This document shows, piece by piece, positions 33,201-54,755 of a stretch of 54,755 nt of DNA. The notes beneath the pieces were generated by a model. The model ran no database searches. It had not been told where the DNA came from and worked only from the letters and a program-made list of their open reading frames with translations. The position numbers were made by a program, and so were the translations under genes. Each line of letters opens with the position of its first letter. Position 1 is the first letter of the stretch. The stretch is from a virus (Duplodnaviria; Caudoviricetes), in IMG/VR virus record IMGVR_UViG_3300025168_000110, positions 1 through 54,755 of that record. One strand, written 5' to 3'.

Positions 33201-36200
33201 TTTAATAAGTTTAAGATTAAAATATCCTGATAATTTCTTTTTGCATAATGTATTAGATATTAACGAAAAAGGAAATTATATTTCTGTAAACAGGGTTAAT
33301 ATAACTGAGTTTACTTCAAGAAAAACTATTGATCAAATAAAAGAATCATTTGCATTAATAAGTTTAGAAGATAAAAATTTAATATTTGATATGGAATATG
33401 AGTTTAATAAATTTGGATTTACTGGAGATTTTTCTGGAGCAACTTCTTTTGTTCCGTTCTTTGATAATAATTATGTAGCTAAAATTAATGATGAAATATC
33501 TAAGATAGTAGAGTTAAATCAAACTAGAGAAGAAACTACAACTAGTAAATTAGATACAGCTATTAACCAAGTCGTAAGCCCTAAGAAAGGGACAGTTAGA
33601 CAAAGAGCTAAGAAATTAGCACAACATGATCATACTATTACAATTGAAAGGCCTAATAAAAGAGCTAAGAAAATAGGACCTGAAGTGTCTTATAGAAATT
33701 TTTCTCAAGATCCTAATAGCCCTGTAATGAATATGACTATGTGGGCGGCTGATAAAGGTATTGATTTAAATAAAATAGACAAAGAATCTAAAACTTACGA
33801 ATTATTAAATAATAGATACGCATCTTATAAAACACAAGTAGGGCTTGTTAATGAGTTTATTTCTGAATTAGACATGAAGCCATTATCTGAATACAATATA
33901 AAAGATTTATACACTATAGCTTCTGATTTTAGAAAAATGGATAATTCAGCAACAAAAGGATTAGCTTATCTTATAGAAAAAGAAATAGGGCAGCAAGCTT
34001 TTAGAGAGCAGGCTGAGTTTTTACAAAAGGCTGGTCGTAAACAAGGGTATGAGTATAATGTTCCTGGAGAGCAAGGAGTAGCTCAAGAAGACCTTACTAA
34101 TTACCGAGCATGGTTAGGGTCTAACAACATGACGTCTAAACGTCCTGAAATACAGTATTTAATTAACGAAACGCAAAAAGAATATAGAGAGTATTTAAAA
34201 GCTTTTAAAAGATATAAAAACATTATAGATAAATCACACAATGCTTTATTAAAATCTAAAAGATCTAGACTAACTACTATGGAAAGATTAAAGCAATCTT
34301 TTACTTCTTATGATAAATATAAATACATTTATGGTAATATTATAAGGATAAGCGGTGATAAAGTAAGGCTTCTTAATAGAGATGAAATTACTGAAGTGTG
34401 GGACACTTTGAGCACACAAGAGCAAGACTACTGGACTCAATACATGACAATAGCTAATATGTTAATTGGAGCTGAAGAATCAAACGGTATGAAAGTTCCT
34501 AATATGCAGATGGGTAATTTAGAAGCTATGTCTAAAAATGGTTTATTTGGATTGTATAATACAACTATTGACTCTTTTGATTATGAAAGAGTTAAGGTGT
34601 ATGGTACTGATAAAGATGGCAATAAAAGTTTAAAAACATTTTATGAATGGAAAAATGAAGTGTATAAAAACAGAACAGGTAAAATTACTTTAGATTCTGG
34701 TAAAAAAATATTTGAATTAGATAAGTTAAGAAAAAAAGCAAAAGAGTTAAAGAAGCTAAATAAACATGAAGATAACTCTCCTATATTATTATCTGATAAT
34801 GAGTATGACGCCTTAGTTAATAGCGCTTACAAGCTTAAAGCAATGGTAGGTCATGATGTTAGTGATGTTGATGCTGAATTAATAAATGAATACGATAGAA
34901 GACAGGGTTCTGCGTTAGAGCAAAATACTCTTAACATACACACAGCTTTATTAGAATTTACTAGAAGCTCTTTGTTTATGCACGGTGAAAACACTGAAAT
35001 TAATCCTGAAGGATTTGCTGGTATGCATAAAACATCTATTCTTACTGATTCTGTTATAGCGTTTAATAAAGATTTAGACAATACTAATGCTGTTAAATAT
35101 CTTACTAAATGGTGGAAAGAAGGATTTTTAGAAAAGAAAAAACAAGAAAGTATTTTTGGAAAAAAGGCTGACAAAGTTATTGATGGATTTGTACAGCTTA
35201 CATCTTTAAGGCTACTAGGGTTTAGCTTAAGTGTGGGTGTAGGTAACGTTCTTGCAGGTAAATATCAAGAATTAAGAAAAAGAGGAGGTAAACAATTTGC
35301 CACTGGAGAGGTTAGATTTTGGAAAGACTGGTCTAAATCAAGAGAGATTCTAAAAAAACACAGAATAATTGATTATAGTTTTGATGACTTTGTTCATCTT
35401 TCAGAAAAGAAAGGTGCGTGGGGTAAGATAGAAAAATGGTCATTTATGTTTATGGATCAATCAGAGCACTACATACAAGGCTCAGCATTTTTAGGCATGC
35501 TAACTAAAGAAGAATTTCAGTCAGGTGAGATATCTCAAAAAAGAGTTATGTATATCAATCATAAAATATCAACAATACATGGTGAGGGTTATACTTCTTT
35601 TGATGCAAGTATGCTTTCTATGTACTCTTATGGTAGGGCATTACTACAATTTAAAAAGTGGTTTATTACTTTAATGCAAGATAGGTTTTCTGCTGAAGAA
35701 ATTGATAGATTTGGAAAAGTTAATGTAGGAAGCTATAGGGCTGCTGGTCAATTTGCTAACACAACAATAAGAGACTTCTTTTCAGGTAAGATTTCAATGA
35801 AAGAGGTTATTGATATATATAATAAGTCAAGCGCACATAGACAAGAAGAAATTTTAAGTTACTTAAGAGGCGTTGGTATAGGATTATCTCTTATAGCTTT
35901 AATAGCAATGATGGAAGACGATGATGAGCAAGACACTAAAGCTTTAAGAACTTTAAAAAAGTTATCTCATGATGTTTTTGTAACTACAGATATAAATAGA
36001 TTTATAAACTATACAGCTGTTCCAGCATCTACTAGTACACTTAAAAATGCCACAAGAGGCATACAAGAAGCTATAAGAGATGATAGAGTTAAAAGATCAG
36101 GGCCTTACGCAGAAGCAGGATCTTCTAAGGCTTTAAAAACGTTTAATATTGAAGTTAGTCCTTATTCTGAATTTAGAAAAGATTATTTAAACTTTGTCTA

Positions 36201-36246
36201 TGAGGGTAAAAAAGAGAAAAAGAAAACAAGTTCTTTAATTAGGTAA
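24244..36246 (+). CDS. Giant virion RNA polymerase polyprotein (two-barrel RNAP with zincin-like domain)
   Basis: 4000 aa; TRVPAHG (~31693) and catalytic GADLDGD (DLDGD at 31822-31836); HELGH at 27961-27975; Gly-rich hydrophobic N-terminal region; position matches crAss vRNAP genes. Confidence 0.85.
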   Translation: MAGEDDFINSLNILLGSDADANLIGSKSIEKEITDNYDDEMDKPSGSFTSMLDNSSQAEQRSIAFEQSMMGAGAENVQQDQNGVMNQMAQGPAPDQQIIDPHSMIGNTAERTGRAIASGWGDLVSGTGDTMDFISALVTPWEADATTSVGSWLKGIGTEYQNENTLILSESLNDITMADMFNGEFWSSKVARQIPFALSFVIPYAGGARLGAYALGRFGMAAARSLQATKNVGTMGRGIGAAANKGSGLLGKLAFDGGKKGLQATKFTRNVGGFVGGGVGANLAEGAFLAGESYDEMLYQLDESGQPLFSPQEAAEHASGVMLDNFKYFMVDAAQYGLVFGGAGKGLTRKLMMGGFKNTPFKASVGHLIKGGMQKIAPHLAPTAAYAGIEGISEGIQELYQEWIKYTALQEAKGKDYKTYMDWMKDEGGNYRPEVRDIFFTSVGLGAAMGGSRGFFDSMAERKKMQEEKHAKFIEHASKIDAAQTTEEEYLATQYAVDHVIADNVWNYGGDGSVVFAYLDKLVSSGKMTQEVADEYKKSVEVSEANYSKHSMNSMLTESAAKQAFFRETRLTRNATQQAQQNALYESDVKKVNETISDESKKNKMLAQLEADHLGVMETLKTEEAEVNRELEDLYTLRIDEAPTAKSTGKRDARFKKQGLTPEENLEYSQEAQKEKERLEKGEFTQTEREQELHKLSKSDMTFDQWKADVIKREGADYLNSFTNEQIMQLKNPSLMDKAQTLGGKALEVGKSLLDKAKTVVSGLTNSEKTESKEEAKKPEAKNTIIEDNLTQAKNWVKKNLHISKDKVSKIIEEVKKAGGTAADVISKLKAEKTLKGASKKVYDAIEKFANDRIEGKEGKTWKEFIKDKLSVDKEGKVTVEEKTKEDTITPKIIKDSKKSKYAKTEEMQNKGKPITNSTDTITVDGVDYRFRIEEFKDGTILYNVSEIAADNKGGMPIRSLTEKEYKSLIEKSQEDVKKKDKTEKVKVYPKNKTFKKIEEFLRSIGGSIVLKGLEVVYGGGTTWGGKSIVIKRDGEDLRFYDFKGDILKLIEKNINKPTILKNIELRLRDPKKGAKDVVTINGKHYFHFPKSRTETAMYDTIVDVYVDGKRVGELLQRDWNSKIITRKAKKQDVRNIDKVIGKLKETKENIKKLLNSTFTEDQTTEILNINRNLEVYQSSGIGAWVLTQSVVQRQFPGARGYVVSQKLHDDYGSEATALALGSAYVLINEKGVEQTDLIHELGHIYYSIMENTPLMKRIKKLLISSKFYQDTKEEYPELILFNYDKQQVTLGDLYEMINNNKFGYTSDLISIVENIEEAEKNNNNQRLIDLFHSLRIQLKNQGIKEVKKNAQKHIIEESFTKALEASSYGTVNSIIKNTEAQRQLKKDLIQFYKETKNLTTEDEAKRFLDLTVENIQSLSLDAAIKQVLLDFNSQDRKIPIVQNSGYKNKTKAKKKRLSKHGSYSNIYSHIGDVSGKKGLTKTQKLNAVIKAIAQSSGLTQKEVSNKSKEYIKAIIAQSTRRNDLKSADTVLDKELKEIGIVIEARDEVTGKVEEHTIETARYEESEKNKGLPTTASNFIKKITEVFNHKNPDNKINRKKLLHALYALAKQTMYDPFDYVPELRKSDNPHLISMIKELDRIYNGDVNLTNAKMMELKGYVEGINIEVLTNGVLNINAKTGEMSWNKYKTTSRSLEASVTNSVLNHVKDNKDVQNKLAKVYNDYFNKKKPSVNDKYNAANKFLNILLDVKNNPKGSLIDIPSLLNNTIMYEGKEQYLYNMLFEHTINPQYNTPILKNKFMVYDGKKREFVASIPQYEPFELFFGSQSSLRNIINEGLVLSRGINYLSIVDSVTGDAISVFNKENGLQNRIKNVANVINEGVYIEENDIMHSDNNIYSYILQERKNKNKLANRKGKVVNNPLRLTVHSGLMRSLIGMAEHKAHVNYEQRANKLNNTSPNELLANDFFMWLARYQEGKKNKDTTIIYDQPIAVFSDKSRRYYIESIMAHDEQSRRLILSKIENNPAYKAKYSDGKSDVFPFKIRDGRIVNIQDEVKKLSKEIGKNQELFTSNKDYKDIKNKREVYEAFLTSYIANRFMAQQLFVHDHRQSKNEIDYVKRAAGAIASHTVYDRNSQVEFIITKDYFVDDDNNLTTEETDGVAIENDAMGYVLPGQAKIIRNKYGEIQKVGNVFKFVYHYTETDGKLKGKTTYMKFAVHVLTPELEALSPEMTKIGDILRAREANVNELSKVKNNLIIAASESAAKLFKDGIRTDNHIYDINQLNAQEISDKQDEIHLDESGYRGLSGEGLGIQLELDKQASERFFPSQLFYNIATNIKTEEEVKLVNEMFELRKKVMDANNTQRNKSLIMNDSATEQDALAERDSFKSSMSADVFGIMVDSSYELLDPRYPFMNASHNSIALGKITKNGTKMYTKGSIGYQSSSLGMGLQSYKKGLFKGDESVVASEAYVPGYLQGDGVKVGDLFIGTRVPAHGKVSSSVFVVKGFHKQIGDSPTSNITIPAHVSKNWGADLDGDSVHMNFQWTKKEVAEKEWRSWSNEFFLKYVELVSTKERQSEIKADIDFITDSDNAISNTNKLIGIDSSDINSQLTPIGDAQMFEDNVPAKDLVGMVAALQRSFNIFSSGKGEALPFGISIKDTDGSVNKHTDGKPIEKYFDNKELEGGVGNWFGVAQLLNIVLDNAKHQYASKLGLNRNSVFPYTYLRRLGFSLDQLSLLFNSPVVKEYMEFKRNRSKNYISKGKDINDMFNQSDEMNLNELVEFLETQNIKSLSKTYTDIITGKPKKGYNKTTWNKLTSRLDSGIEIDLNGLINREQAAEVDAILALYALSKYNSDIVRPFSMAFTVHQTIEKNPVELHKIHNDILKIRQGPVLINDKTSGGLNITYEMGDSANNAIVNHAVGLFDSTLKRASRTDIRFTPYMQSILTTPKAEELLEKNKDFKSKIINQVIVNDLKQNIELLTNEKSVEALVNDLISLRLKYPDNFFLHNVLDINEKGNYISVNRVNITEFTSRKTIDQIKESFALISLEDKNLIFDMEYEFNKFGFTGDFSGATSFVPFFDNNYVAKINDEISKIVELNQTREETTTSKLDTAINQVVSPKKGTVRQRAKKLAQHDHTITIERPNKRAKKIGPEVSYRNFSQDPNSPVMNMTMWAADKGIDLNKIDKESKTYELLNNRYASYKTQVGLVNEFISELDMKPLSEYNIKDLYTIASDFRKMDNSATKGLAYLIEKEIGQQAFREQAEFLQKAGRKQGYEYNVPGEQGVAQEDLTNYRAWLGSNNMTSKRPEIQYLINETQKEYREYLKAFKRYKNIIDKSHNALLKSKRSRLTTMERLKQSFTSYDKYKYIYGNIIRISGDKVRLLNRDEITEVWDTLSTQEQDYWTQYMTIANMLIGAEESNGMKVPNMQMGNLEAMSKNGLFGLYNTTIDSFDYERVKVYGTDKDGNKSLKTFYEWKNEVYKNRTGKITLDSGKKIFELDKLRKKAKELKKLNKHEDNSPILLSDNEYDALVNSAYKLKAMVGHDVSDVDAELINEYDRRQGSALEQNTLNIHTALLEFTRSSLFMHGENTEINPEGFAGMHKTSILTDSVIAFNKDLDNTNAVKYLTKWWKEGFLEKKKQESIFGKKADKVIDGFVQLTSLRLLGFSLSVGVGNVLAGKYQELRKRGGKQFATGEVRFWKDWSKSREILKKHRIIDYSFDDFVHLSEKKGAWGKIEKWSFMFMDQSEHYIQGSAFLGMLTKEEFQSGEISQKRVMYINHKISTIHGEGYTSFDASMLSMYSYGRALLQFKKWFITLMQDRFSAEEIDRFGKVNVGSYRAAGQFANTTIRDFFSGKISMKEVIDIYNKSSAHRQEEILSYLRGVGIGLSLIALIAMMEDDDEQDTKALRTLKKLSHDVFVTTDINRFINYTAVPASTSTLKNATRGIQEAIRDDRVKRSGPYAEAGSSKALKTFNIEVSPYSEFRKDYLNFVYEGKKEKKKTSSLIR

Positions 36247-43235: not shown

Positions 43236-44522
43236 ATGTTAATTAATGAAAAGATTAAAGAATATCTTTTAAAAAATCCAACAAAATTAAGAAGCGATTA
43301 TGCTAAAACTGCAGAATTGTTTAACACTAATTATGAGCAGGTTAGAGGAGTAGCTCGTAAGATTAGAAAAACTCTAGGTGATGTAACTAACGATGCAGAA
43401 AAAGAATCAATAGATGTTTCTAATAAAAAAGATTCTAAAATTGTTAATATAGAAAAGTCTACAAGAATAAAATCTATAGAAGATTTAATTAAGGCTGCTA
43501 ATATAGATACAAACTTATGGGAATTAGAAAAATTTGATATAGGTACATATGAAGTAACAGGATTTGACGCTAATAACAATCCCAATACAGTTACTATGTA
43601 TCGTATGAAAGCTTGGTTTAAACCTATTAAAGCTCATCTCAATTTAGATTTAATATCTAAAGATTTAAAAGAAGATCTAAAAGATTTATCGCCATTAGTA
43701 CAACGAAAAGAATATCAAAGAGACAAAAAAGATAAATACCTTTTAGAAATATCTGCTTTTGATTTACATTTAGGTAAAATAGGTATTAAGGGGGATGATT
43801 ATAGTTTAAAAATAGCTTCTAATAGATTAGTGGATGCTGTAGAGCATTTATTATATAGAGCTCAAGGTTACCATGTAGATAAAATTTTATTTATAGTAGG
43901 ACAGGATTTGTTAAATTCTGATGGTGATTGGCCTATAGTATCTACTACTAGAGGAACTCCACAATATAATACTGATTATGGTATAGATATGTACAGAGCA
44001 GCTAGAAAGCTTTTAATTAAATGTATAAACTATCTTTCTGAAATAGCTCCTGTACACGTAATGGTTGTTCCTGGTAATCACGACAGAGAATCTGTAATGC
44101 ACTTAGGTGATATGTTAGAATTATATTACGATAAAAATGAAAATATAAAAGTAGATAATTCAGATTGCCAAATGAAAATGTTAGTGTATGGAAAAAATAT
44201 GATTATATCAGATCATGGAGATGGTCCAAAAGCAACAAATCTCCCTGGCATAATATCCCAAAGATACAAAAACGCATGGTCGGATGTTGATTTTGTTGAG
44301 GTGCATAGAGGTCATTACCATACCAATAAGTCTGTTAAATTACAAGCTATTGAAGAGTTAAACGGTATTACTGTTAGAAATTTATCTTCTATGTCTGCAA
44401 CAGATTTTTGGCATGACTCTAAAGGTTTTATAGGTAACATTAAAAAAGCCCAAGCATTCCTTTATCATAGGACAAATGGATTGCAAGGGATTTTAAATTA
44501 TAATGTTTCTTTAAGAAAATAG
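43236..44522 (+). CDS. Calcineurin-like metallophosphoesterase with N-terminal HTH-like region
   Basis: DLHLG, GQD, GNHD, HGD and GHYH motifs in order. Confidence 0.8.
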   Translation: MLINEKIKEYLLKNPTKLRSDYAKTAELFNTNYEQVRGVARKIRKTLGDVTNDAEKESIDVSNKKDSKIVNIEKSTRIKSIEDLIKAANIDTNLWELEKFDIGTYEVTGFDANNNPNTVTMYRMKAWFKPIKAHLNLDLISKDLKEDLKDLSPLVQRKEYQRDKKDKYLLEISAFDLHLGKIGIKGDDYSLKIASNRLVDAVEHLLYRAQGYHVDKILFIVGQDLLNSDGDWPIVSTTRGTPQYNTDYGIDMYRAARKLLIKCINYLSEIAPVHVMVVPGNHDRESVMHLGDMLELYYDKNENIKVDNSDCQMKMLVYGKNMIISDHGDGPKATNLPGIISQRYKNAWSDVDFVEVHRGHYHTNKSVKLQAIEELNGITVRNLSSMSATDFWHDSKGFIGNIKKAQAFLYHRTNGLQGILNYNVSLRK

Positions 44523-44527
44523 TTTAA

Positions 44528-44731
44528 TTAATTATTTTCTTCTAGTATAACAATTAATTCTTCTTTATTTAGAAGTTTTCTAGGACGTTTTCCTTTTATA
44601 TAATCTTCAGGATCATAAACTTGTTTCACCTCTTTAATTTTTCCTTGAGGTGTAGTTTTAACAATCCATCTAATATCTTTATTAAAGGATCCTTTTTTTA
44701 AATGTGATAAGAACGAAAAATCATTTTTCAT
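44528..44731 (-). CDS. Hypothetical protein
   Basis: ORF track; last gene of the - strand operon. Confidence 0.5.
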   Translation of the reverse strand: MKNDFSFLSHLKKGSFNKDIRWIVKTTPQGKIKEVKQVYDPEDYIKGKRPRKLLNKEELIVILEENN

Positions 44732-44733
44732 GT

Positions 44734-44930
44734 TTAAAATTTATTAAATTTATCTTTTACTATTTTATCTATAGTGTTCCAAGAAACATTAGTTAAATGT
44801 TGTATGTCCTTTAAGGTATAGCCTTTTGTAACATATTTCCAAATTCTTAATTTTTGTTGGACAGTTAGTTTTTTATAAGGAATTTTTTTATAATATTCAG
44901 CCCTTCTTCTTATATCTTTTAATGTTTCCA

Positions 44931-44931
<1 letters not shown>
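44734..44931 (-). CDS. Small HTH DNA-binding protein
   Basis: GYTLKDIQHLTNVSWNTIDKIV helix-turn-helix pattern. Confidence 0.55.
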
Positions 44932-46511
<1,580 letters not shown>

Positions 46512-46766
46512 TTATTTAATAATTGCTAATATATCATGCTCTTTAAGCATAAGTAACTCTTTGCCTCCATACTGCATTGTAGTTCCTCCAAACTGAGAGA
46601 ACAATACAGTATCGTTTTTCTTAATTTTAGTTATCTCATCTCCAACTGCAATAACTTTGCCTTCGTTTGGCTTTTGATTATTAGCAGTGATGATACCCGA
46701 TGCAGTTTTCTTTTGAGCATCTTTTTGCTCAATAATAATGTTTTTACCTAGTGGAATTATTTTCAT
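46512..46766 (-). CDS. groES: Co-chaperonin GroES
   Basis: PLG...KTASGII...GKVIAVG...VLFSQFGGT...EHDILA; directly upstream of groEL. Confidence 0.95.
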   Translation of the reverse strand: MKIIPLGKNIIIEQKDAQKKTASGIITANNQKPNEGKVIAVGDEITKIKKNDTVLFSQFGGTTMQYGGKELLMLKEHDILAIIK

Positions 46767-46767
46767 T

Positions 46768-47019
46768 TTATGTTTTATTTTTTTGTTTAAATACTTTTCT
46801 AATTATTTCTATTGGTGCAACAAAATAAATATCTTCTTTTACTTTTAAATCTATATGAGAGTAACTATCATGTTGATTTGGATTAAAATCTCTTACTGGA
46901 TAATTTTTTCTTGTACAACCCGTTATATTATAACTAAGAGGTATTTGAGCGTAAACCGTAACTCCTTTTGTAGAAAGCCATTCTGCTTCTCTAACTAATA
47001 ATCTATCTTCTAATGTCAT
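46768..47019 (-). CDS. Hypothetical protein
   Basis: ORF track. Confidence 0.5.
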   Translation of the reverse strand: MTLEDRLLVREAEWLSTKGVTVYAQIPLSYNITGCTRKNYPVRDFNPNQHDSYSHIDLKVKEDIYFVAPIEIIRKVFKQKNKT

Positions 47020-47030
47020 TAATATATTTT

Positions 47031-47171
47031 TTATTTAAACCATACAGCATACACCTTAGTACCGTTAGAGGTGGTACATGCGTGTACCCTTTTCTTTTCC
47101 TCTTGTTTTTTTAACTTGTTTTTGTCCCAGTATTTTGGATTCTTGCTGTTCAGCTTCCTTTTTTTTGTCAT
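47031..47171 (-). CDS. Small basic protein (46 aa; not in ORF track)
   Basis: MTKKRKLNSKNPKYWDKNKLKKQEEKKRVHACTTSNGTKVYAVWFK. Confidence 0.45.
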   Translation of the reverse strand: MTKKRKLNSKNPKYWDKNKLKKQEEKKRVHACTTSNGTKVYAVWFK

Positions 47172-47215
47172 AAAGCTCCATGTTTTTAATTAATTTTTGA
47201 TTCTGTTTTTTCATA

Positions 47216-48070
47216 TTAAAATATATATCTTATTGTGTTCCAGTTTATAATACTGTCGTGTAAATCTACAAATTGTTTTATATAATTACGTTTTAATTTG
47301 TGATTATATCTAACGTTTTTTCCACCATACTGTGATGTTTTAGACTCTTGTATGTCTGGTACCCATAAATCTTTTTCTGTCAAGGGATTAGCCTCTAGAT
47401 TTTCCATGTGTTTTTTAAAGTTATGTGTTAAGAATATGCATTCTGATAAAACTATATTTTTATTTATAACATGGTTATTAACTAAATTAAATAACTCAGT
47501 ATAATCTTCTAGCCATCCTTCATAAACTATAATAGGAGAAAAATTAATATGTACATCATAACCAGCATCTATAAATTTATCAATAGCTTTTATTCTATCT
47601 ATAATTTTAGAGGTAAAAGGCTCGTGTATATTTGATTTGACTTGTGGCATTAAACTGAATCTAATTCGTATTTTACCATTAGGATCAAAATCTAATAAGT
47701 TTTTATTTACATATTTAGTAGCAAAACTGCCCATTATATCTGGGTGCTCTTTAAAGAAAGTAAATATTTTTTCCCACTCATGGTGCTTAGCATGTAATGC
47801 AAAATCTTCATTACAGCTTATATCATAAGTCGTATATTTTTTATGTGTTTGGTTAGGCTTGTCAACTACTGCAAATGCAGCATGACTATTTATTTCTGTT
47901 AGTATATCTTCTGTGTTTGTAGCTACAGAAAGCCCCTTAGCCTTGTGTCGTTTCATATAACAATAAGAACAATTATATAAACAACCATATCCAAAGCTAG
48001 GGGTTATAAAATCAGTAGACCTTCCAGAAGGCCTTATTTTAAATGTTTTTCTATTTACTTTTTTGATCAT
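47216..48070 (-). CDS. splB: Spore photoproduct lyase-like radical SAM enzyme
   Basis: GCLYNCSYCY cluster motif; DISCNED aligns with Bacillus SplB EASCTSD (Cys141); FATK, IRIRFS, EPFTS...RI.A, AGY, SPIIVYEGW are collinear with SplB. Confidence 0.8.
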   Translation of the reverse strand: MIKKVNRKTFKIRPSGRSTDFITPSFGYGCLYNCSYCYMKRHKAKGLSVATNTEDILTEINSHAAFAVVDKPNQTHKKYTTYDISCNEDFALHAKHHEWEKIFTFFKEHPDIMGSFATKYVNKNLLDFDPNGKIRIRFSLMPQVKSNIHEPFTSKIIDRIKAIDKFIDAGYDVHINFSPIIVYEGWLEDYTELFNLVNNHVINKNIVLSECIFLTHNFKKHMENLEANPLTEKDLWVPDIQESKTSQYGGKNVRYNHKLKRNYIKQFVDLHDSIINWNTIRYIF

Positions 48071-48368
48071 CTATTTTTTCTAATTCAAATTCTAAGTGAG
48101 CTATTGCTTTTTTTAAACAGTCTACAGGAGTATCATGTTTATGGTATGCACGTAAAATATAAGTAGTAGCGGTTGCAAGGTGGTAGGATAAATTAAAATT
48201 ATCACATACCTTTCTTGCCTCATAACCATTTCTACCTCTATAATAATTTGGAACTCTAGTGTCTTTTAATCCCAATTCTTCTTTAGACATTTTCATTTTA
48301 GGATTTATATTTGTAGTAGAGTCCATATTTCTGTCAAATTCATAGTAATATTTATTGTGCTTTGTCAT
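48051..48368 (-). CDS. DUF3310-family protein
   Basis: P.YY.G..GYEA...YILRA..K....DCLKKAI.HLE. Confidence 0.7.
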   Translation of the reverse strand: MTKHNKYYYEFDRNMDSTTNINPKMKMSKEELGLKDTRVPNYYRGRNGYEARKVCDNFNLSYHLATATTYILRAYHKHDTPVDCLKKAIAHLEFELEKIDDQKSK

Positions 48369-48760
48369 TAGTCTAGTTTTGTTTTAAAGTGATCTATTAT
48401 TTTATTCATCTGTCTTTTGTAGAATAAATCAAAATCTACATATTCCATTTGCCCTGACTCTCCATTTAATTGCTTTGGCTGTGTTTTTTCCCATAACCTA
48501 AATAAGACCGCTCTCATTCTTTGTGATGGTGTTTTTTCTTTAAATTCCGCGTTTACAGTTGCTCCTTCTACTGCATCTATTTGTTCTTGAGATATTTTCT
48601 TTGTAGAAACCAGGATATAACCTGGCTTCTTTCTTAATCTCATAATAGCTGCTTCTGTATCGTTTGTAAGTTCTGGTGTTCCTAAGATAACTCTTAAAGA
48701 ATTATCTGCCATAGTGGATACTTTATCTATCCCTCCTTCAAATACTACTGAATGTTTCAT
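48368..48760 (-). CDS. Conserved phage hypothetical protein (KTPSQRMRAVL)
   Basis: ORF track, coupled to neighbours. Confidence 0.55.
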   Translation of the reverse strand: MKHSVVFEGGIDKVSTMADNSLRVILGTPELTNDTEAAIMRLRKKPGYILVSTKKISQEQIDAVEGATVNAEFKEKTPSQRMRAVLFRLWEKTQPKQLNGESGQMEYVDFDLFYKRQMNKIIDHFKTKLD

Positions 48761-48761
48761 A

Positions 48762-49565
48762 TTATATATCGTTTGTCATTATGTGAATATTTCTTTCTGA
48801 GTTTTTATTAAGATAATCATAACCTTGTCCAGGCCAATAATCATTTTTTGTGCAATAATTATATATCTCTAGCTCTTGGTTATACATATACCTTCCATCG
48901 TCTAACATGTCGTCACCTATTTGAAATACATTCATATTAAATGGAGGTGATTTTTCTATAGCTACTATATAAAACTCATCTGCTCCTACAGCGTCCATAT
49001 AGAATGCTGCCTGCTTATGATACTTATATTTTAATATAGACCTTCTAAAGCCACTATACGAAGCGTCTTGCGTTGTTTTAAGATCTATAATAATATTAGG
49101 CTTTGGCTTATAGCAATCTAACATACCCTTACACTCTACATCATGAGTTTCGTTATGCCATGTTATTATTTTTTCTTTCTCTCCTCCTGAGAGTAATTGT
49201 TTAATAGTAGAATCTTTCATTAACTTCATAGTCATCTGTTCAATTAATTCAAATTCAGATTCTGTTATAACGGTTTTAAAGAAATTCTTTTTTTCAAATT
49301 CTGCATAGTCTGCCTTTCCTACTTTAGTTCTTTTATCAAACTTAGGCGCTACTGCGTAATTTTTATTAAATTCAGATGGTTGCAATACATTAACATGAAA
49401 CGCTGATCCAAATTTCATTGCTGCTGTTGGTAGCTGTGGATTATCCAATCTAAATCTAAAATATTCAGGAGAGTTTCCTGATAAGTTATTCAACATACTG
49501 TTAGATACATATTCTGTATTCTGGTAGTAGTCGTTGTGCGATAATTTGTCTTTTAATATTTTCAT
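48762..49565 (-). CDS. PD-(D/E)XK exonuclease, RecE/exoVIII C-terminal (DUF3799)-like
   Basis: SNSML, FGSAFH, E....W, CKGMLD, IIDLKTT, YHKQAAFY, FYIVAIEK. Confidence 0.8.
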   Translation of the reverse strand: MKILKDKLSHNDYYQNTEYVSNSMLNNLSGNSPEYFRFRLDNPQLPTAAMKFGSAFHVNVLQPSEFNKNYAVAPKFDKRTKVGKADYAEFEKKNFFKTVITESEFELIEQMTMKLMKDSTIKQLLSGGEKEKIITWHNETHDVECKGMLDCYKPKPNIIIDLKTTQDASYSGFRRSILKYKYHKQAAFYMDAVGADEFYIVAIEKSPPFNMNVFQIGDDMLDDGRYMYNQELEIYNYCTKNDYWPGQGYDYLNKNSERNIHIMTNDI

Positions 49566-49580
49566 TTGTTTTACATAAAG

Positions 49581-49614
49581 GCAATAAAGCCCCTCCGAAG
49601 AAGGGCTCTAATGC
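49581..49614 (-). terminator. C(UUCG)G hairpin, terminator-like
   Basis: Minus strand UAGAGCCCUUC-UUCG-GAGGGGCUUUA with outer GCA/UGC pairs and a weak U-rich tail. Confidence 0.55.
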
Positions 49615-49657
49615 AAACAAAACAAAGGTTAAAGAGAAAGTTCTACAAACGTAGTTA

Positions 49658-49984
49658 CTACTCTTTTGCTCCCTTTTCCTCCTCTTGACCTTCGTTATCT
49701 TTATCAGACGCATGCTGATCGTCTAACTCTTTCATTCTTACCAATATATTTGCTGCTTCTGGAATATTCATACAATAAGAAAATAAGCTTCTTCTAAATT
49801 CTTTAATTTCTGACGGTGAGTCAGTACCATTGTAATCTTTATGCAGCCATGTAAGTAACGCTACCTCATGAGCATGTAATGCTTCAGATAACGCTTTTAA
49901 AGTATCACTAACAGGTTTTTCAACCTTATACTTTTCTCCCATAATGTTAATCTTTTCTTTTGGTTCTTTTTTCTTTGTTGCCAT
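49658..49984 (-). CDS. Hypothetical protein
   Basis: ORF track. Confidence 0.55.
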   Translation of the reverse strand: MATKKKEPKEKINIMGEKYKVEKPVSDTLKALSEALHAHEVALLTWLHKDYNGTDSPSEIKEFRRSLFSYCMNIPEAANILVRMKELDDQHASDKDNEGQEEEKGAKE

Positions 49985-49992
49985 ATTTAATT

Positions 49993-50361
49993 TTAATTTG
50001 TTACTTTTATTTCTACTCCTGGATTTTCTTTATCATAAACATAATCTTCAAATGAAGGTTTTATAAATTCACAATTATCATCTTCTATCCATTCGTATTT
50101 AACCATTAGATCTTGTACTGTTTGAGCTGGATTTATATAATCAAATTTTCTTCTACTTTTTCTAAAGAATTTAAAGCTCACTTCATACGGTGGTTTTTTT
50201 TCTTTTATTAATTCTAAGAATTTTTCTTTATTCTCAACCCACTCTTGTTTTGAGTCTTTTATGTAATTCATCGTTGTTTTAGAGTGGATTAAATACTTTC
50301 CTGTCCATCGTTTTCCGTTCTTACTAGATGGGACATTTCCTGCTATAAATATCTCTGCCAT
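49993..50361 (-). CDS. RusA-like Holliday junction resolvase
   Basis: GNVPSSKN, RRKFDYIN...VQDLM...IEDDN, ENPGVEI. Confidence 0.7.
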   Translation of the reverse strand: MAEIFIAGNVPSSKNGKRWTGKYLIHSKTTMNYIKDSKQEWVENKEKFLELIKEKKPPYEVSFKFFRKSRRKFDYINPAQTVQDLMVKYEWIEDDNCEFIKPSFEDYVYDKENPGVEIKVTN

Positions 50362-50365
50362 ATTG

Positions 50366-50373
50366 CAAAGATA
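50366..50373 (-). promoter_or_regulatory. Bacteroidota -7 element (TATCTTTG), leaderless
   Basis: 4 nt before ATG at 50361. Confidence 0.6.
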
Positions 50374-50382
50374 ACAATAAAT

Positions 50383-50484
50383 TTGAGAGTTTCACCTTTA
50401 GAGTTGTGGCGCACTTAAATCTTAAAAGCTTAACCTGTCTAGCAGGACACTTACCTGACGCTAGGGGATCTGTTATCTCTCTCA
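50383..50484 (-). ncRNA. Candidate structured RNA between ssb and resolvase
   Basis: Closing stem UGAGAG/CUCUCA, inner CUAG..CAGG/CCUG-CUAG hairpin, GC-richer than the genome; family not recognised. Confidence 0.35.
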
Positions 50485-50495
50485 TTTATATTTAT

Positions 50496-51101
50496 TTAGA
50501 AGGGCATATCTTCATCGTTATTGTCTTCGCTTAAAGATGTTATTGTGCTTTCATTAACACTATTGTTTGTGTCAGCCCATTCTTTGTGTTTCTTGGCAAA
50601 TTCAATTCTTGCAGGTGTGTCTAAAACTTGATTCATGTCTGCATTGTAAGTACATTTTCCTCCTTCTTTAGAACTCCATCTATACCCTACAGAAGTTCTA
50701 ATAACAGGCTCTCCTGTTCCTTTTACTATTGTAGTATATTCTTGAGACGTAAGACATATCATTAATGTTTTGTCTACAGCTTCATTCATAGCTTTGCTGT
50801 CGTCTGAAAAATCTTGTACACCACAATTTATTAAGAAATCTCTTAATTGTTTTATTTTCCAATCTTTAGATGTTTGCCTGTCTGTTTCTTTAACTGCCCA
50901 AAACCTACATTTACCTACTTCTCCAGATGCAGCTGTTACTAAAAAGTCTATAAACGGACTTCCAGTATAGCTATCTAATTGATCAGAAGTCTTAATACCC
51001 GTAACTGTACACAGATGTGCTCCTGGGTTAAGGTATTCAAATCTTTGCCCTTTAGCAGATCCTGTTGTTGTGACATTTAAGTCAAATGGTAATACTTTCA
51101 T
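50496..51101 (-). CDS. Single-stranded DNA-binding protein (OB-fold, DUF669-like)
   Basis: PGAH.C.V..IK N-terminal motif and acidic C-terminal tail DNNDEDMPF; next to annealase. Confidence 0.65.
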   Translation of the reverse strand: MKVLPFDLNVTTTGSAKGQRFEYLNPGAHLCTVTGIKTSDQLDSYTGSPFIDFLVTAASGEVGKCRFWAVKETDRQTSKDWKIKQLRDFLINCGVQDFSDDSKAMNEAVDKTLMICLTSQEYTTIVKGTGEPVIRTSVGYRWSSKEGGKCTYNADMNQVLDTPARIEFAKKHKEWADTNNSVNESTITSLSEDNNDEDMPF

Positions 51102-51595
51102 TATTTATTGTTTTTAATTTTCCAGTTAATATAATTTGTTAGCGTTACACCATCAAACACTAATTTGTTCTTTTCGGGAATATATGGATACTCTTTCCCG
51201 TTAGTATGTTTTTGTGTTTTAAGCGTTTGTATTGGCAGTCTATATAAGAATCTACCTATACCCCAAGATACACATGCACGTTTAAAAGCATCTGATACAT
51301 GACCTTTATCTTTTTCTACATTAGACTCTGAACCTGTGTCTGATTTCCATACCCACTGATTATATGCAACTTCAGATTCATTGTCTTTTGAATCACAACA
51401 AATACCTATTTTACAAAATAGTAATCCATTTTCTTCATAGAATATACTTTGCCAGTTTTCAGGACCTACTACTTCATCTAGTAAGTCTTGACAATCTCTT
51501 GCATCTATATAGGCAACGCAATTTGCTTTACCATATTTTGATGACTGTACCCTCCATTTAAAAGGAAGTTCTTTTTTTAAATCTTCTAATTTCAT
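51101..51595 (-). CDS. Rad52/Sak-like single-strand annealing protein
   Basis: AYIDARD...LDEVVG..NWQ, WVWKSDTG, EKDKGHVSDAFKRA.V.WGIGRFLY. Confidence 0.85.
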   Translation of the reverse strand: MKLEDLKKELPFKWRVQSSKYGKANCVAYIDARDCQDLLDEVVGPENWQSIFYEENGLLFCKIGICCDSKDNESEVAYNQWVWKSDTGSESNVEKDKGHVSDAFKRACVSWGIGRFLYRLPIQTLKTQKHTNGKEYPYIPEKNKLVFDGVTLTNYINWKIKNNK

Positions 51596-51831
51596 TTTTC
51601 TTTTTCTTTCTTTTGATTTTTCTTAATCTTTTTTATTGCCGACAACGCAATAACGAATTTTACAAAGCGCCTTATCATAATAGGCCTACCTCTTAGTATA
51701 AGAGTAACTGCTATTTCTTTAAAAGTTAATAGTAATACTTCTTTTACAAGTGCTTTGTTAATACCTAAATCATAAGCAATCTCTGCCGCTATGTCTCTTA
51801 CTCTTGATTTTTCTCTGTTTTTTTGTTCCAT
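51592..51831 (-). CDS. HU/IHF-like DNA-binding protein
   Basis: IA..IAYDLGINKALVKEVL...I...L..GRPIMIRRFVKF. Confidence 0.6.
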   Translation of the reverse strand: MEQKNREKSRVRDIAAEIAYDLGINKALVKEVLLLTFKEIAVTLILRGRPIMIRRFVKFVIALSAIKKIKKNQKKEKEK

Positions 51832-51838
51832 TTAGGAG

Positions 51839-51869
51839 CAAATATACATATTTAATTTTTATCTCCAAA
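51839..51869 (-). promoter_or_regulatory. Complete Bacteroidota promoter TTTG-N19-TATATTTG
   Basis: Minus strand TTTG 51869-51866, 19-nt spacer, TATATTTG 51846-51839, 7 nt before ATG 51831. Confidence 0.75.
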
Positions 51870-52013
51870 CAATTGAACAGCTAAATAAATAGGGACAACG
51901 ATTAATGTACTCAAAATTAATGAGAACATAAGAGGTGTCGCTATAAATATAAATCCTGTTATTGTTGCAATAGATAATATAGGATATTTTGAAAATATCT
52001 TAAATTTATTCAT
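51852..52013 (-). CDS. Small membrane protein (53 aa; not in ORF track)
   Basis: MNKFKIFSKYPILSIATITGFIFIATPLMFSLILSTLIVVPIYLAVQLFGDKN; start overlaps dnaB stop. Confidence 0.55.
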   Translation of the reverse strand: MNKFKIFSKYPILSIATITGFIFIATPLMFSLILSTLIVVPIYLAVQLFGDKN

Positions 52014-53289
52014 AATCTTCAAATTTAGTTAATTCACTTATAAATTTTAAAGTCACTTCACCGACTCCAATATTTCTGCCTTTCGCAAATATAATACTAG
52101 CTATACCTTTTGCGTTATTACCTGCATCGTCATATTCTAATCCATAGTACTCAGGACGATATATAAGCATAACTACATCTGCAGCCTGCTCTATCTCACC
52201 TGATTCTCTAAGATCAGAAAGTGTGGGCTTACTGTTGTTTCTCATACCTACACCTCTATTTAACTGACTTAATGCTATTACTGTTATATTAAGCTCTTTA
52301 GCAAGATTCTTTAACTTACGCGCAACCTTACTAACTTCTTGCTCTCTTGACAGTCCTTTAGCGCTATATGATACTAATTGTAAATAGTCTACCATAACTA
52401 ATTTAACGCCTCTATTTTTAACATATTCTTTTATTCTGTATACTAAGTAATTTAGTGATGTGATGTTACACTCATCTACATTTAGCGGAATGTTTTCTAA
52501 GACAGTTGTAGCGTCATGTATTCGCTTTAACTCTTCATCATTTAAAGTACCGTTAGATATGTAATTATTTGAAACTCCTGATTCAACAGATGTTAATCTT
52601 TTAAGAAGTTGATTACTACTCATTTCGTAAGAAAATATTACTGTAGGAGTATCTCCATATTTAGCTGCATTATAAGCCAAGGCTAAAGCAAAACTTGTTT
52701 TACCCATAGAAGACGCACCGCCAACAATAATTAAATCTGTTTCTTGCCAGCCTCCTGTAAACTTATCTATATCTCTAAATCCTGTAGGAGTACCAATTAG
52801 GCCTTCTGTATTCATTCTAACTTCTATGTCTCCAAGCATGTTTCTTAATTGCTTTTTTAAATCTGCAAGCTCTTCGCCAGAAGACATATTTATTTTAGAA
52901 ATGTCTTTTTGTATATTACCAATAATAACTTCTAATTCTTCTCTATCTGTAAGTTGATTATTTACATTACACACTATACCTAGAAGAACTCTTTTCTGAA
53001 ACTCTTCTTGCAGTATAGCTATACAAGTTTTGGCTTCTGTAAAAGAATAAGCTTCTTCTGTTATTTCTGACAGTTGTAATACAACATTATCTCCTTTTAT
53101 AAGTTTACCTAAAGTTAATATGTCTACGGTTTCACCTCTATCTTTTTGCTTTAAAAGCGCAAGATAAATAGATTTGTGAAATGGTATATTAAATAAATCT
53201 TCATGCAAAAGATTTGCATACTTATCATAAACAGTTTCTTCAATTATAATTTTACCTAAAAGAGTTTGTTCTATTTCAAAATTTGTCAT
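52006..53289 (-). CDS. dnaB: Replicative DNA helicase DnaB
   Basis: PTGF..ID, GASSMGKT (Walker A), FSYEM, VDYLQL, LSQLNR, LSDLRESGEIEQAAD. Confidence 0.95.
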   Translation of the reverse strand: MTNFEIEQTLLGKIIIEETVYDKYANLLHEDLFNIPFHKSIYLALLKQKDRGETVDILTLGKLIKGDNVVLQLSEITEEAYSFTEAKTCIAILQEEFQKRVLLGIVCNVNNQLTDREELEVIIGNIQKDISKINMSSGEELADLKKQLRNMLGDIEVRMNTEGLIGTPTGFRDIDKFTGGWQETDLIIVGGASSMGKTSFALALAYNAAKYGDTPTVIFSYEMSSNQLLKRLTSVESGVSNNYISNGTLNDEELKRIHDATTVLENIPLNVDECNITSLNYLVYRIKEYVKNRGVKLVMVDYLQLVSYSAKGLSREQEVSKVARKLKNLAKELNITVIALSQLNRGVGMRNNSKPTLSDLRESGEIEQAADVVMLIYRPEYYGLEYDDAGNNAKGIASIIFAKGRNIGVGEVTLKFISELTKFEDYE

Positions 53290-53310
53290 AATGTATTTTT
53301 AAGGGAAGGG

Positions 53311-53318
53311 CGAATATA
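53311..53318 (-). promoter_or_regulatory. Variant -7 element (TATATTCG) upstream of dnaB
   Basis: One mismatch to TAnnTTTG, intergenic, same ATGTATATT context as the 51839 promoter. Confidence 0.45.
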
Positions 53319-53324
53319 CATATA

Positions 53325-53576
53325 TTATTCATTGTATTTTCTTTTAGCATCAGCTTTATCTTCTAAAGCATTTTCTCTCATTCTATCATTATATTCATCT
53401 ATAGGTTCTAAATCTATTTCATCTAGCCAATCATTACAATCTAGACATTCGTAACCCTCTGAGTCTGTATGCTCTTTACATTCATAGCATATTCCTGAGT
53501 CTGATATTTGAGCGGAGCAGCACCAACTTACAGTGCTCTCCTCATATTCTGACCCACAACATTTACTTACTAACAT
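53325..53576 (-). CDS. Small Cys-rich zinc-finger protein
   Basis: SKCC, SWCC, CYECKEH, CLDC. Confidence 0.6.
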   Translation of the reverse strand: MLVSKCCGSEYEESTVSWCCSAQISDSGICYECKEHTDSEGYECLDCNDWLDEIDLEPIDEYNDRMRENALEDKADAKRKYNE

Positions 53577-53577
53577 A

Positions 53578-53874
53578 TTATTCGTATTTAAAGTTAACTA
53601 TCTCTTGTTTGTATTCTTCAGCACGATTGTGTCTTTCGTACCATTTTTTTCCTCTAAGAGTTTTATCAACTTCTTGAAGTTTTCTTCTAGCTCTTGTTAT
53701 AGAGTCAGCGCTAGACAGTATTTTATTACTTAAGTATAAATCAAAGAAGTCTTCTAAATTTTTATCTTTAGGCATTTGCCAGCTCCACACTAAAATACAT
53801 AGTGATCTATCACTATCTTTAGCAGTTCTAGATATATTTAGTATTTGTCTAACTAATTTATGCAGCTTATTCAT
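53578..53874 (-). CDS. Conserved phage hypothetical protein (SITRARRKLQE)
   Basis: ORF track. Confidence 0.55.
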   Translation of the reverse strand: MNKLHKLVRQILNISRTAKDSDRSLCILVWSWQMPKDKNLEDFFDLYLSNKILSSADSITRARRKLQEVDKTLRGKKWYERHNRAEEYKQEIVNFKYE

Positions 53875-54128
53875 ATTACTGGTATTGTTCCTAATTTTTC
53901 AAATGTAGTAGATATAGCTCCGCCATCATTACCTTCATCGTCCATCATTGGCACTAACCAATATTTATTATCTAATTGAATAGCTATTGGTCTCTTATAC
54001 CATCCAGAGTCTTCCATTTCTACTCTAGTCATATACTCTACTTTTGTTATTTTCTTGCCAACTAAATGTTTAGCAATTTTTTCTGTCCAGTATTGCTCTA
54101 CTGGTTTTCCTTCAATTTTGTATTCCAT
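53871..54128 (-). CDS. Conserved phage hypothetical protein (PMMDDEGNDGGA)
   Basis: ORF track. Confidence 0.55.
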   Translation of the reverse strand: MEYKIEGKPVEQYWTEKIAKHLVGKKITKVEYMTRVEMEDSGWYKRPIAIQLDNKYWLVPMMDDEGNDGGAISTTFEKLGTIPVI

Positions 54129-54277
54129 AATTCATTTGTTTTATTAAATTCTTTTATTAAGATATTTTCTTCATTATCTGATAATAATAAAGATCCTTGC
54201 ATGTATAAATTATGTAATTCAAAAATACTAGGACTATAACCAAATTTTTCTTTATAATTTTTTATTATTGTTTCCAT
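54098..54277 (-). CDS. Hypothetical protein (59 aa; not in ORF track)
   Basis: METIIKNYKEKFGYSPSIFELHNLYMQG... fills the gap. Confidence 0.45.
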   Translation of the reverse strand: METIIKNYKEKFGYSPSIFELHNLYMQGSLLLSDNEENILIKEFNKTNELWNTKLKENQ

Positions 54278-54285
54278 AATTTATT

Positions 54286-54513
54286 TTATATTACCCAACA
54301 TCCAGTGTCGGTTTCTGTTAAAATATAGTAGTCATCTTCTTCAAAATCTTCTTTATCTAAAAATTGGATTCCATTTACTACTAAATCATCAATGTTTAAT
54401 ATATTCAAATCAACATCTATTTCTATTAGATAATCAAATAGCTCTTCATAGTATTCGTCATCTATGTCTACACAGCAAGACATCATTAGTCTGTTTAAAT
54501 TAAATTCTTTCAT
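54286..54513 (-). CDS. Very acidic small protein
   Basis: ORF track; D/E-rich. Confidence 0.5.
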   Translation of the reverse strand: MKEFNLNRLMMSCCVDIDDEYYEELFDYLIEIDVDLNILNIDDLVVNGIQFLDKEDFEEDDYYILTETDTGCWVI

Positions 54514-54526
54514 AATTTATTTATTT

Positions 54527-54727
54527 TTATAGTGCTGCCCATCCAATAAAGTAAAAAGCTTTGATACCTTTCTTGCCTTTATAGCCTCTATTTTCTTTCA
54601 TTCTTTTTAATACTGCTCCTGTTATTTCTATACATACACAGTCTTCCCATTTTTGTGCAACATTAAGCATTTTATGTTCCCATTTTTCAAATGCTTTAGT
54701 TCCATATCGTGGATTATCATCACGCAT
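54527..54727 (-). CDS. Hypothetical protein
   Basis: ORF track. Confidence 0.45.
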   Translation of the reverse strand: MRDDNPRYGTKAFEKWEHKMLNVAQKWEDCVCIEITGAVLKRMKENRGYKGKKGIKAFYFIGWAAL

Positions 54728-54755
54728 TATAAAGCCCGATGTTGTTGATATTGTA

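Follow-up and report, generated by a model that had tools for sequence, protein, structure and literature searches.

A short spore photoproduct lyase-family protein encoded by a marine phage, a possible light-independent repair enzyme for thymine dimers

The window analysed here, the whole of IMG/VR virus record IMGVR_UViG_3300025168_000110 (linear, 54,755 bp, estimated 81% complete), carries on its minus strand a short gene of the spore photoproduct lyase (SPL) family of radical S-adenosylmethionine (SAM) proteins. We propose that its 284-aa product is a stand-alone, light-independent, direct-reversal repair enzyme for spore photoproduct (SP)-type thymine dimers in phage DNA, a reading to which we assign a probability of about one half. 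The family and fold of the protein, the conservation of its catalytic and base-binding residues, purifying selection on its gene, the phage context and an accessory distribution are established. A preliminary description of the same DNA had taken it for that of a phage, in agreement with its source, a virus record; its interpretation of the gene stands as far as the SPL family, the phage and the surrounding module are concerned, while no support was found for the functional pairing with an adjacent DUF3310 protein, which it also considered. The gene is:

47216..48070, minus strand, short SPL-family radical SAM gene (list of open reading frames (ORFs); Pfam SPL; TIGR03886; AlphaFold2; Foldseek)

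Family membership and extent of the gene

Pfam SPL (PF20903) recognized the protein with an E-value of 6.8e-26 and 91.4 bits, passing the cut-off of 27, residues 7-267 being aligned with profile positions 65-320 of 338. Among curated families the best score was obtained with NCBIfam TIGR03886, 'spore photoproduct lyase family protein' (E 3.5e-91, 305.9 bits, profile positions 63-346 only), and TIGR04070, 'spore photoproduct lyase', was matched with an E-value of 4.8e-25 and 88.2 bits. Judged by these profiles, the 284-aa protein is a clear SPL-family member in the Pfam sense, its nearest subfamily being that of non-sporulating bacteria. The collinearity with SplB motifs seen earlier by eye extends through the profile alignment, which runs collinear across residues 7-284.

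The ORF comprises 284 codons. An in-frame TAG stands immediately 5′ of the ATG at 48070 and the N-terminus therefore cannot extend further. A longer frame, or a recoded stop, was rejected: the upstream extension contains TAG and TAA codons, and the overlapping upstream gene is itself conserved.

Some of these proteins already bear the name 'spore photoproduct lyase', given by annotation pipelines, among the source names of the protein database. PHROGs held no family for the protein (best E 5.6e-4), and a single weak match, at 23.5% identity, was found among 50,697 deposited phage records, a set in which records very near the window are possibly not included. In the literature searched, with subscription journals mostly outside its coverage, no paper turned up on a phage-encoded SPL-family repair enzyme or on an N-terminally short phage SPL clade.

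Predicted structure and active site

The AlphaFold2 model, for which an alignment of 48 sequences (A1) served as input, had a mean pLDDT of 96.5 and a pTM of 0.93. In a Foldseek search of the PDB the top six matches were all SPL entries (4FHC, 4FHE, 4FHF, 4FHG, 4RH0 and 4K9R), with a TMq of 0.89 and root-mean-square deviations of 2.1-2.3 Å over 287-289 columns, and the next fold, SkfB, reached only 0.55. Such a fold match, together with the family E-values, is far beyond chance. Residues were then assigned by sequence and profile alignments to Geobacillus SPL (4FHC), and the following elements of the gene were located:

47960..47983, minus strand, codons C30 to C37, [4Fe-4S]/SAM motif C-LYN-C-SY-C, then Y38 (aligned to C90/C94/C97, Y96 and Y98 of 4FHC)
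47813..47815, minus strand, codon C86, putative hydrogen-atom donor, Cys140 in Geobacillus SPL (alignments; conservation)
47306..47350, minus strand, residues 241-255, predicted beta-hairpin with Y248 at its tip, corresponding to the Y305 hairpin of SPL (AlphaFold2 and profile alignment)
47225..47227, minus strand, codon Y282, Tyr339 in Geobacillus SPL, with partners R137 and E210 (alignment)

The SYCY signature on which the SPL identity had been proposed belongs to the motif C30-x3-C34-S-Y36-C37-Y38, in which C30, C34 and C37 align with the cluster ligands C90, C94 and C97 of Geobacillus SPL and Y36 and Y38 with the tyrosine pair Y96 and Y98. Similarly, the Cys of the DISCNED signature, suggested as the hydrogen donor, is C86 and aligns with hydrogen-donor Cys140 of 4FHC (Cys141 in B. 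subtilis). Further correspondences are D89 with D143, K119 with K174, S139 with S195, the base-binding triad R137/E210/Y282 with R193/E268/Y339, and the loop S15/G16/S18 with S76/K77/S79. The predicted hairpin is formed by strands 241-245 and 251-255; K244..Y255 aligns with K301..Y312 and, at the tip, Y248 with Y305 and Q247 with R304.

In the Geobacillus structural work (PMC3467042), D143 is described as contacting the SAM amino group and K174 and S195 the SAM carboxylate, R193, E268 and Y339 as hydrogen-bonding to the 5′ dihydrothymine of the lesion, the backbone of the S76/K77/S79 loop as holding the 3′ thymine, and the beta-hairpin with its aromatic tip (R304/Y305) as serving lesion flipping. 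Thus the phage protein, only ~24% identical to SplB of Bacillus and Geobacillus (TIGR04070; 4FHC) and of the same predicted fold, has in common with it the CxxxCxYCY motif, the donor Cys position, the Tyr pair, the SAM-binding Lys and Ser (K119/S139), the base-binding R/E/Y triad, the Tyr-tipped hairpin and the C-terminal Tyr. As far as alignment can tell, all the cluster, donor-Cys, base-binding and hairpin features of a true SPL are present in the 284-aa protein, and the earlier identification of a radical SAM protein that belongs to the SPL family and has the catalytic residues of a true SPL is upheld.

Conservation and the wider family

A search of a large protein database at E ≤ 0.001 gave 3947 matching proteins. 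The 120 homologues listed in detail measured 282-287 aa, shared 74-91% identity with the window protein and were marine wherever a source name was given. When these 120 and the window protein were compared, S15, S18, D20, C30, C34, Y36, C37, Y38, C86, D89, K119, R137, S139, E210, T215, Y248, R254 and Y255 were found in every sequence (121/121), and Y282 in all except one (120/121). Against 78 IMG/VR copies the window gene showed a median dN/dS of 0.10 (dS was finite in 74/78 pairs) and a median pS of 0.68, with synonymous sites near saturation; a dN/dS of ~0.1 indicates strong purifying selection on the SPL gene.

An exhaustive search for representatives at 50% clustering returned 881 clusters at E ≤ 0.001, with 82 at E ≤ 1e-30. 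Forty-eight full-length representatives were aligned, 46 of them of 277-340 aa and the other two of 349 and 365 aa, the bacterial long SPL forms having 347-422 aa without inteins. Across these diverse sequences the cluster cysteines, P179 and Y255 were invariant or nearly so, and R137 was kept in 46/48, E210 in 45/48 and Y282 also in 45/48. Distant short forms were likewise encountered on IMG/VR viral contigs, at 7 and 2 loci for two representatives. Separately, two bacterial SPL-family proteins of ~499 aa (P0317 and P0354) carry intein-type domains (PF07591, PF14890) within the SPL domain.

The nearest curated family, TIGR03886, differs from the phage proteins at the donor site: its bona fide members from non-sporulating bacteria have Thr at the Cys140 position (consensus 'YELGTNSDC', 15 sequences, alignment A2), whereas the phage clade, like Bacillus, has the donor Cys. 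At this position the phage clade is thus more Bacillus-like than the family that it scores best against. The C-terminal 'RY.F' and hairpin motifs are common to both. One long bacterial protein, P0141, is a bona fide member (566.6 bits against TIGR03886) and is ~40% identical to the window protein; named bacterial examples include Aquisphaera and Tautonia as well as metagenome-assembled genomes (MAGs) of Actinomycetota, Thermomicrobiales and Pyrinomonadaceae. No TIGR03886 member with biochemical characterization was found in the literature searched.

In a quick maximum-likelihood tree of 73 rows, 16 long bacterial proteins formed one tight clade (support 100), while the window clade and P0121 formed a separate one (97) among far more diverse short forms; the window protein was accordingly placed outside the bacterial TIGR03886 clade. 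The root of this tree is unsure, the outgroup consisting of two usable rows (the L090 row was an unrelated ORF with a branch length of 8.59), and we therefore draw no direction of transfer.

Genomic context and distribution

The setting within replication and recombination genes that had been reported for the SPL gene was recovered: the minus-strand block contains genes for a DnaB helicase, an Erf-like annealing protein, RusA and a PD-(D/E)XK exonuclease. The neighbours, all on the same strand as SPL, are:

44931-46505, minus strand, GroEL, full-length, 524 aa, downstream of SPL (translation)
46512-46766, minus strand, GroES, 84 aa, directly downstream of SPL (translation)
48051..48368, minus strand, DUF3310-like gene upstream of SPL, 105 aa, sharing 20 nt with the SPL start in a different frame
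48762-49565, minus strand, PD-(D/E)XK exonuclease
49993-50361, minus strand, RusA
51101-51595, minus strand, Erf-like
51592-51831, minus strand, HU-like, 79 aa, between the Erf-like gene and DnaB, borderline HU/IHF (PF00216) match
52006-53289, minus strand, DnaB

In IMG/VR, 486 stretches encode an SPL relative, and the locus figures given here refer to the best 80 of these 486. The SPL gene was present in 80/80 loci, in at least four gene orders, all of them replication/recombination/repair modules. The window-type order comprises RusA, the PD-(D/E)XK exonuclease, two small proteins, SPL, GroES and a converging Metallophos exonuclease; a second one comprises a Metallophos exonuclease, a DUF1064 nuclease, a small protein, SPL, a DUF2201 metallopeptidase/VWA protein and a 5′-3′ exonuclease; in other loci a Dam-type methylase, a DNA polymerase, and DUF932 or SNF2 helicases lie close by. 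The Metallophos 'DNA repair exonuclease' was found in 54/80 loci, GroES in 10/80 and a GroEL homologue in only 2/80. Across the four or more contexts of these 80 loci we detected no constant immediate neighbour of SPL and none that co-varied with it.

We also examined 17 phage records whose major capsid protein is 55-80% identical to that of the window (contigs of at least 34 kb, picked from 80 loci). An SPL-family gene occurred in only 2/17, and in 1/6 when records at least 90% complete are considered. SPL is therefore an accessory and self-contained phage gene, and this stand-alone distribution fits a self-sufficient repair enzyme. The DUF3310-like gene was found in 8/17 of the same records, in 5/6 of those at least 90% complete, and therefore is not an obligate partner of SPL; it occurred in 27/80 SPL loci. 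The DUF3310 label itself derives from PHROGs only (C-terminal parts of 'nucleotide kinase', E 2e-6), no Pfam match being obtained at E ≤ 1. These results speak against the functional pairing of the two adjacent genes that had been considered.

The same neighbour was also tried as one half of a split gene. The 15-sequence bacterial TIGR03886 alignment was compared by hhalign with the small upstream proteins, and both the DUF3310-like protein and the commonest other upstream protein were rejected as the missing N-terminal domain, with probabilities of 1% and 0.1%.

Genes of thymidine hypermodification were searched in five records, the window and four other carriers, three of them 95-100% complete. 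A thymidylate-synthase-like gene (PF00303), the 5-hydroxymethyldeoxyuridine (5-hmdU) kinase domain HMUDK (PF18723) and Amidoligase_2 were each absent from all five SPL-carrying window-clade records (0/5), and a hypermodification cluster was rejected for the window clade on these three, aGPT-Pplase and the pyridoxal phosphate (PLP) enzyme being outside the search. A photolyase domain was likewise absent (0/5).

The 79-aa HU-like ORF, of interest for the SASP-like role that small basic proteins might play according to the preliminary description, scored 21.6 bits, below the PF00216 cut-off of 22.4, and was the sole HU/IHF-like match in the window; similarly weak matches were seen in 3/4 other SPL-carrying records.

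Proposed activity and alternatives

By analogy to Geobacillus and Bacillus SPL we infer the substrate, the activity and the origin of the lesions in phage DNA. After injection, the SPL gene would be expressed together with the replication and recombination genes. The [4Fe-4S] cluster on C30/C34/C37 would be reduced by host flavodoxin or ferredoxin, SAM would then be cleaved, and the 5′-deoxyadenosyl radical would abstract H from C6 of an SP-type dimer (5-thyminyl-5,6-dihydrothymine) that the Y248 hairpin would have flipped out and that R137, E210 and Y282 would bind. The methylene bridge would then break, C86 would return a hydrogen to the 3′ thymine radical and Y38/Y36 would relay the radical back, the outcome being two intact thymines, obtained without light or excision. 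We take T4 endonuclease V (denV) and viral photolyases to be functional analogues, as cases of UV repair that a phage brings along for its genome after injection; their folds and chemistry are unrelated to those of SPL. The phage setting differs from that of SplB, which is under sporulation control: the gene lies among replication genes and the host is probably non-sporulating.

A number of points weigh against this proposal. SP arises when DNA is dry or A-like, the DNA packaged in phages is usually described as B-form, and in hydrated DNA cyclobutane pyrimidine dimers and 6-4 photoproducts dominate; in the literature searched, where subscription journals were mostly outside coverage, no report of SP in virions was found. 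Radical SAM enzymes are oxygen-sensitive and the likely hosts are aerobes. At the level of the protein, neither equivalog cut-off is reached, the scores of 305.9 and 88.2 bits comparing with 437.55 for TIGR03886 and 400 for TIGR04070. The protein also lacks some 62 residues from the N-terminus of the family, which amount to half of the N-terminal domain; the match begins at profile position 63-65, and the complete alpha/beta domain of four strands and three helices is not present.

The residues expected around the lesion phosphate are also changed: R273 and K309, which in 4FHC held a pyrophosphate mimicking the dimer's phosphate (PMC3467042), are replaced by T215 and N252. The first of these positions is Thr in 44/48 diverse representatives and the second is Asn or Val. 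R254, kept in at least 90% and close by, might substitute for the lost phosphate-binding residues. Moreover, C86 is kept in only 29/48 diverse representatives (one of the 29 also with a loop Cys). Among the 19 others, five have a Cys in the N-terminal loop (positions 12-17; one of them also at position 90), the place of the Clostridium-type donor and of Ser76 in Geobacillus, two have a Cys at position 90 only, and 12 have none at any of the three candidate donor places. Given this loss of the donor Cys, the chemistry may vary across the short-form family. Finally, in a distant viral carrier (L109, 2348-5861) the SPL-like gene comes directly after those of a class-II GATase and an Amidoligase_2.

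Part of this evidence would be accommodated by an SPL-type radical SAM repair enzyme whose target is another thymine-derived lesion than classical SP, for instance a further cross-link of the methylene-bridged or dihydropyrimidine type, arising where phage DNA is tightly packed or exposed to sunlight. The base-binding residues R137, E210 and Y282 and the radical machinery are kept, but the phosphate pair is replaced and the N-terminal half-domain lost, so that the grip on the DNA backbone must differ; the Thr at the Cys140 position in the 15 bacterial TIGR03886 sequences shows that the family tolerates changes at the hydrogen-donor site, and the score lies under both equivalog cut-offs. However, all residues that contact the SP bases in 4FHC are conserved, nothing in our analysis indicates a specific other substrate, and we know of no alternative lesion for any SPL-family member. 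We regard this possibility as unlikely.

A different kind of role, for which we see a rather low probability, would be modification of thymine or a thymine derivative in phage DNA for evasion of host nucleases, as with gp53 of Pseudomonas phage M6. In Lee et al. (PMC8989533), this phage-encoded radical SAM protein, modelled on SPL, is described as isomerizing glycinyl-thymine in DNA, and its cluster as comprising a 5-hmdU kinase, aGPT-Pplase, a PLP enzyme and a dUMP hydroxymethylase/thymidylate-synthase homologue; GATase and amidoligase families are named there among uncharacterized members of hypermodification clusters. Both proteins are thus phage-encoded radical SAM proteins of SPL-like kind, and the gene order in L109 and the lack of C86 in 19/48 representatives could be read along these lines. 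Yet gp53, of 480 aa, is not matched by Pfam SPL, and its hhalign alignment with the family profile covers only 53 columns. Its cluster partners contrast with the window clade, where the kinase domain, the thymidylate-synthase-like gene and the amidoligase are missing from all five records; among five distant SPL-like carriers an amidoligase occurs in only one. No gene co-varies with SPL in the four or more contexts compared, the DUF3310-like neighbour is distributed differently (8/17 versus 2/17), and in the window clade the full active site of the repair type is retained in 121/121 sequences. Base modification may be more likely for some of the distant branches that lack C86.

That the gene is instead a recently acquired passenger with no role for the phage, or that its product acts on host nucleic acid such as RNA, appears very improbable. 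Its patchy distribution (2/17 capsid-related records) and an expression trace limited to one 174-nt contig in one RNA library would suit such a passenger; a dN/dS of ~0.1 at near-saturated synonymous sites, 486 IMG/VR stretches and 3947 database homologues with the 120 listed all of 282-287 aa, the invariance of the catalytic residues among close homologues and the constant location in DNA replication/recombination modules do not. A small share of the probability is given to none of these readings.

Implications of repair by a short phage SPL

SP lyase is a textbook repair enzyme bound to one life stage, the dormant spore, and to our knowledge action on DNA has been shown for only one other radical SAM enzyme. 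The short gene, present in hundreds of uncultured marine phages, suggests a phage DNA-repair route, so far unstudied. One may go further and suppose that SP, or a chemically similar lesion, really arises and matters for selection in the tightly packed, AT-rich DNA of free virions in sunlit seawater, and that phages counter it with a reduced SP lyase that needs no light; this we offer tentatively and with more doubt than conviction. If it were true, phages and not spore-formers would hold most of the diversity of the SPL family, the bacterial TIGR03886 clade being one offshoot. Wide carriage of such a compact and strongly conserved form by uncultured marine phages would mean that SP-type damage, or radical SAM repair generally, matters well beyond spores, and that phage survival in sunlight, a major term in marine virus decay, has an unaccounted light-independent repair component. 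A 284-aa enzyme without the N-terminal half-domain would also be a convenient minimal model for the SPL mechanism, and the family members with a shifted or missing donor Cys would form a ready-made series for studying how the radical returns, a path still under debate.

Host, habitat and expression

The major capsid protein matched only Flavobacterium phages (29/56 records) and crAss-like or other uncultured phages, at 24-27% identity among the 15 matches listed. Searched by tblastn, GroEL was found in 239 phage records with at least 80% cover, and the best matches among those listed were Bacteroides phages, at 56% identity. The window contains no tRNAs. A Bacteroidota host, as assumed in the preliminary description, is made plausible by the capsid and GroEL matches; a 74%-identical SPL on a phage-like contig of 120,283 bp binned with a 'Rickettsiales' MAG (L082 / G001 contig 2) counts against it. 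On that contig no tRNA was found across 120 kb and SPL adjoins a DNA polymerase and an exonuclease; the contig resembles a phage genome, or else viral sequence placed in the wrong bin. The presence of the 74% copy on a different contig indicates that the SPL gene moves among different marine phages.

Parts of the SPL gene were found in 20 sequencing runs from 13 studies, labelled marine or seawater except for one plain 'metagenome' and one sediment, and only 3/20 runs contained half or more of the gene's words. A seawater metatranscriptome run (X20) gave one contig of 174 nt at 47326-47499, with 2 differences and a depth of ~3, which is too little to claim transcription because an RNA library can contain DNA.

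Gene strand and GC/AT skew both switch at ~44000-44900, at the border between the structural and late genes on the plus strand (1 to ~44500) and the replication block on the minus strand (~44500-54755). The structural half contains two giant ORFs, at 9246-16067 (plus strand, 2273 aa) and 24244-36246 (plus strand, 4000 aa); together with the distant crAss-like major capsid protein, they bring to mind the giant tail proteins and the virion RNA polymerase known from crAss-like phages.

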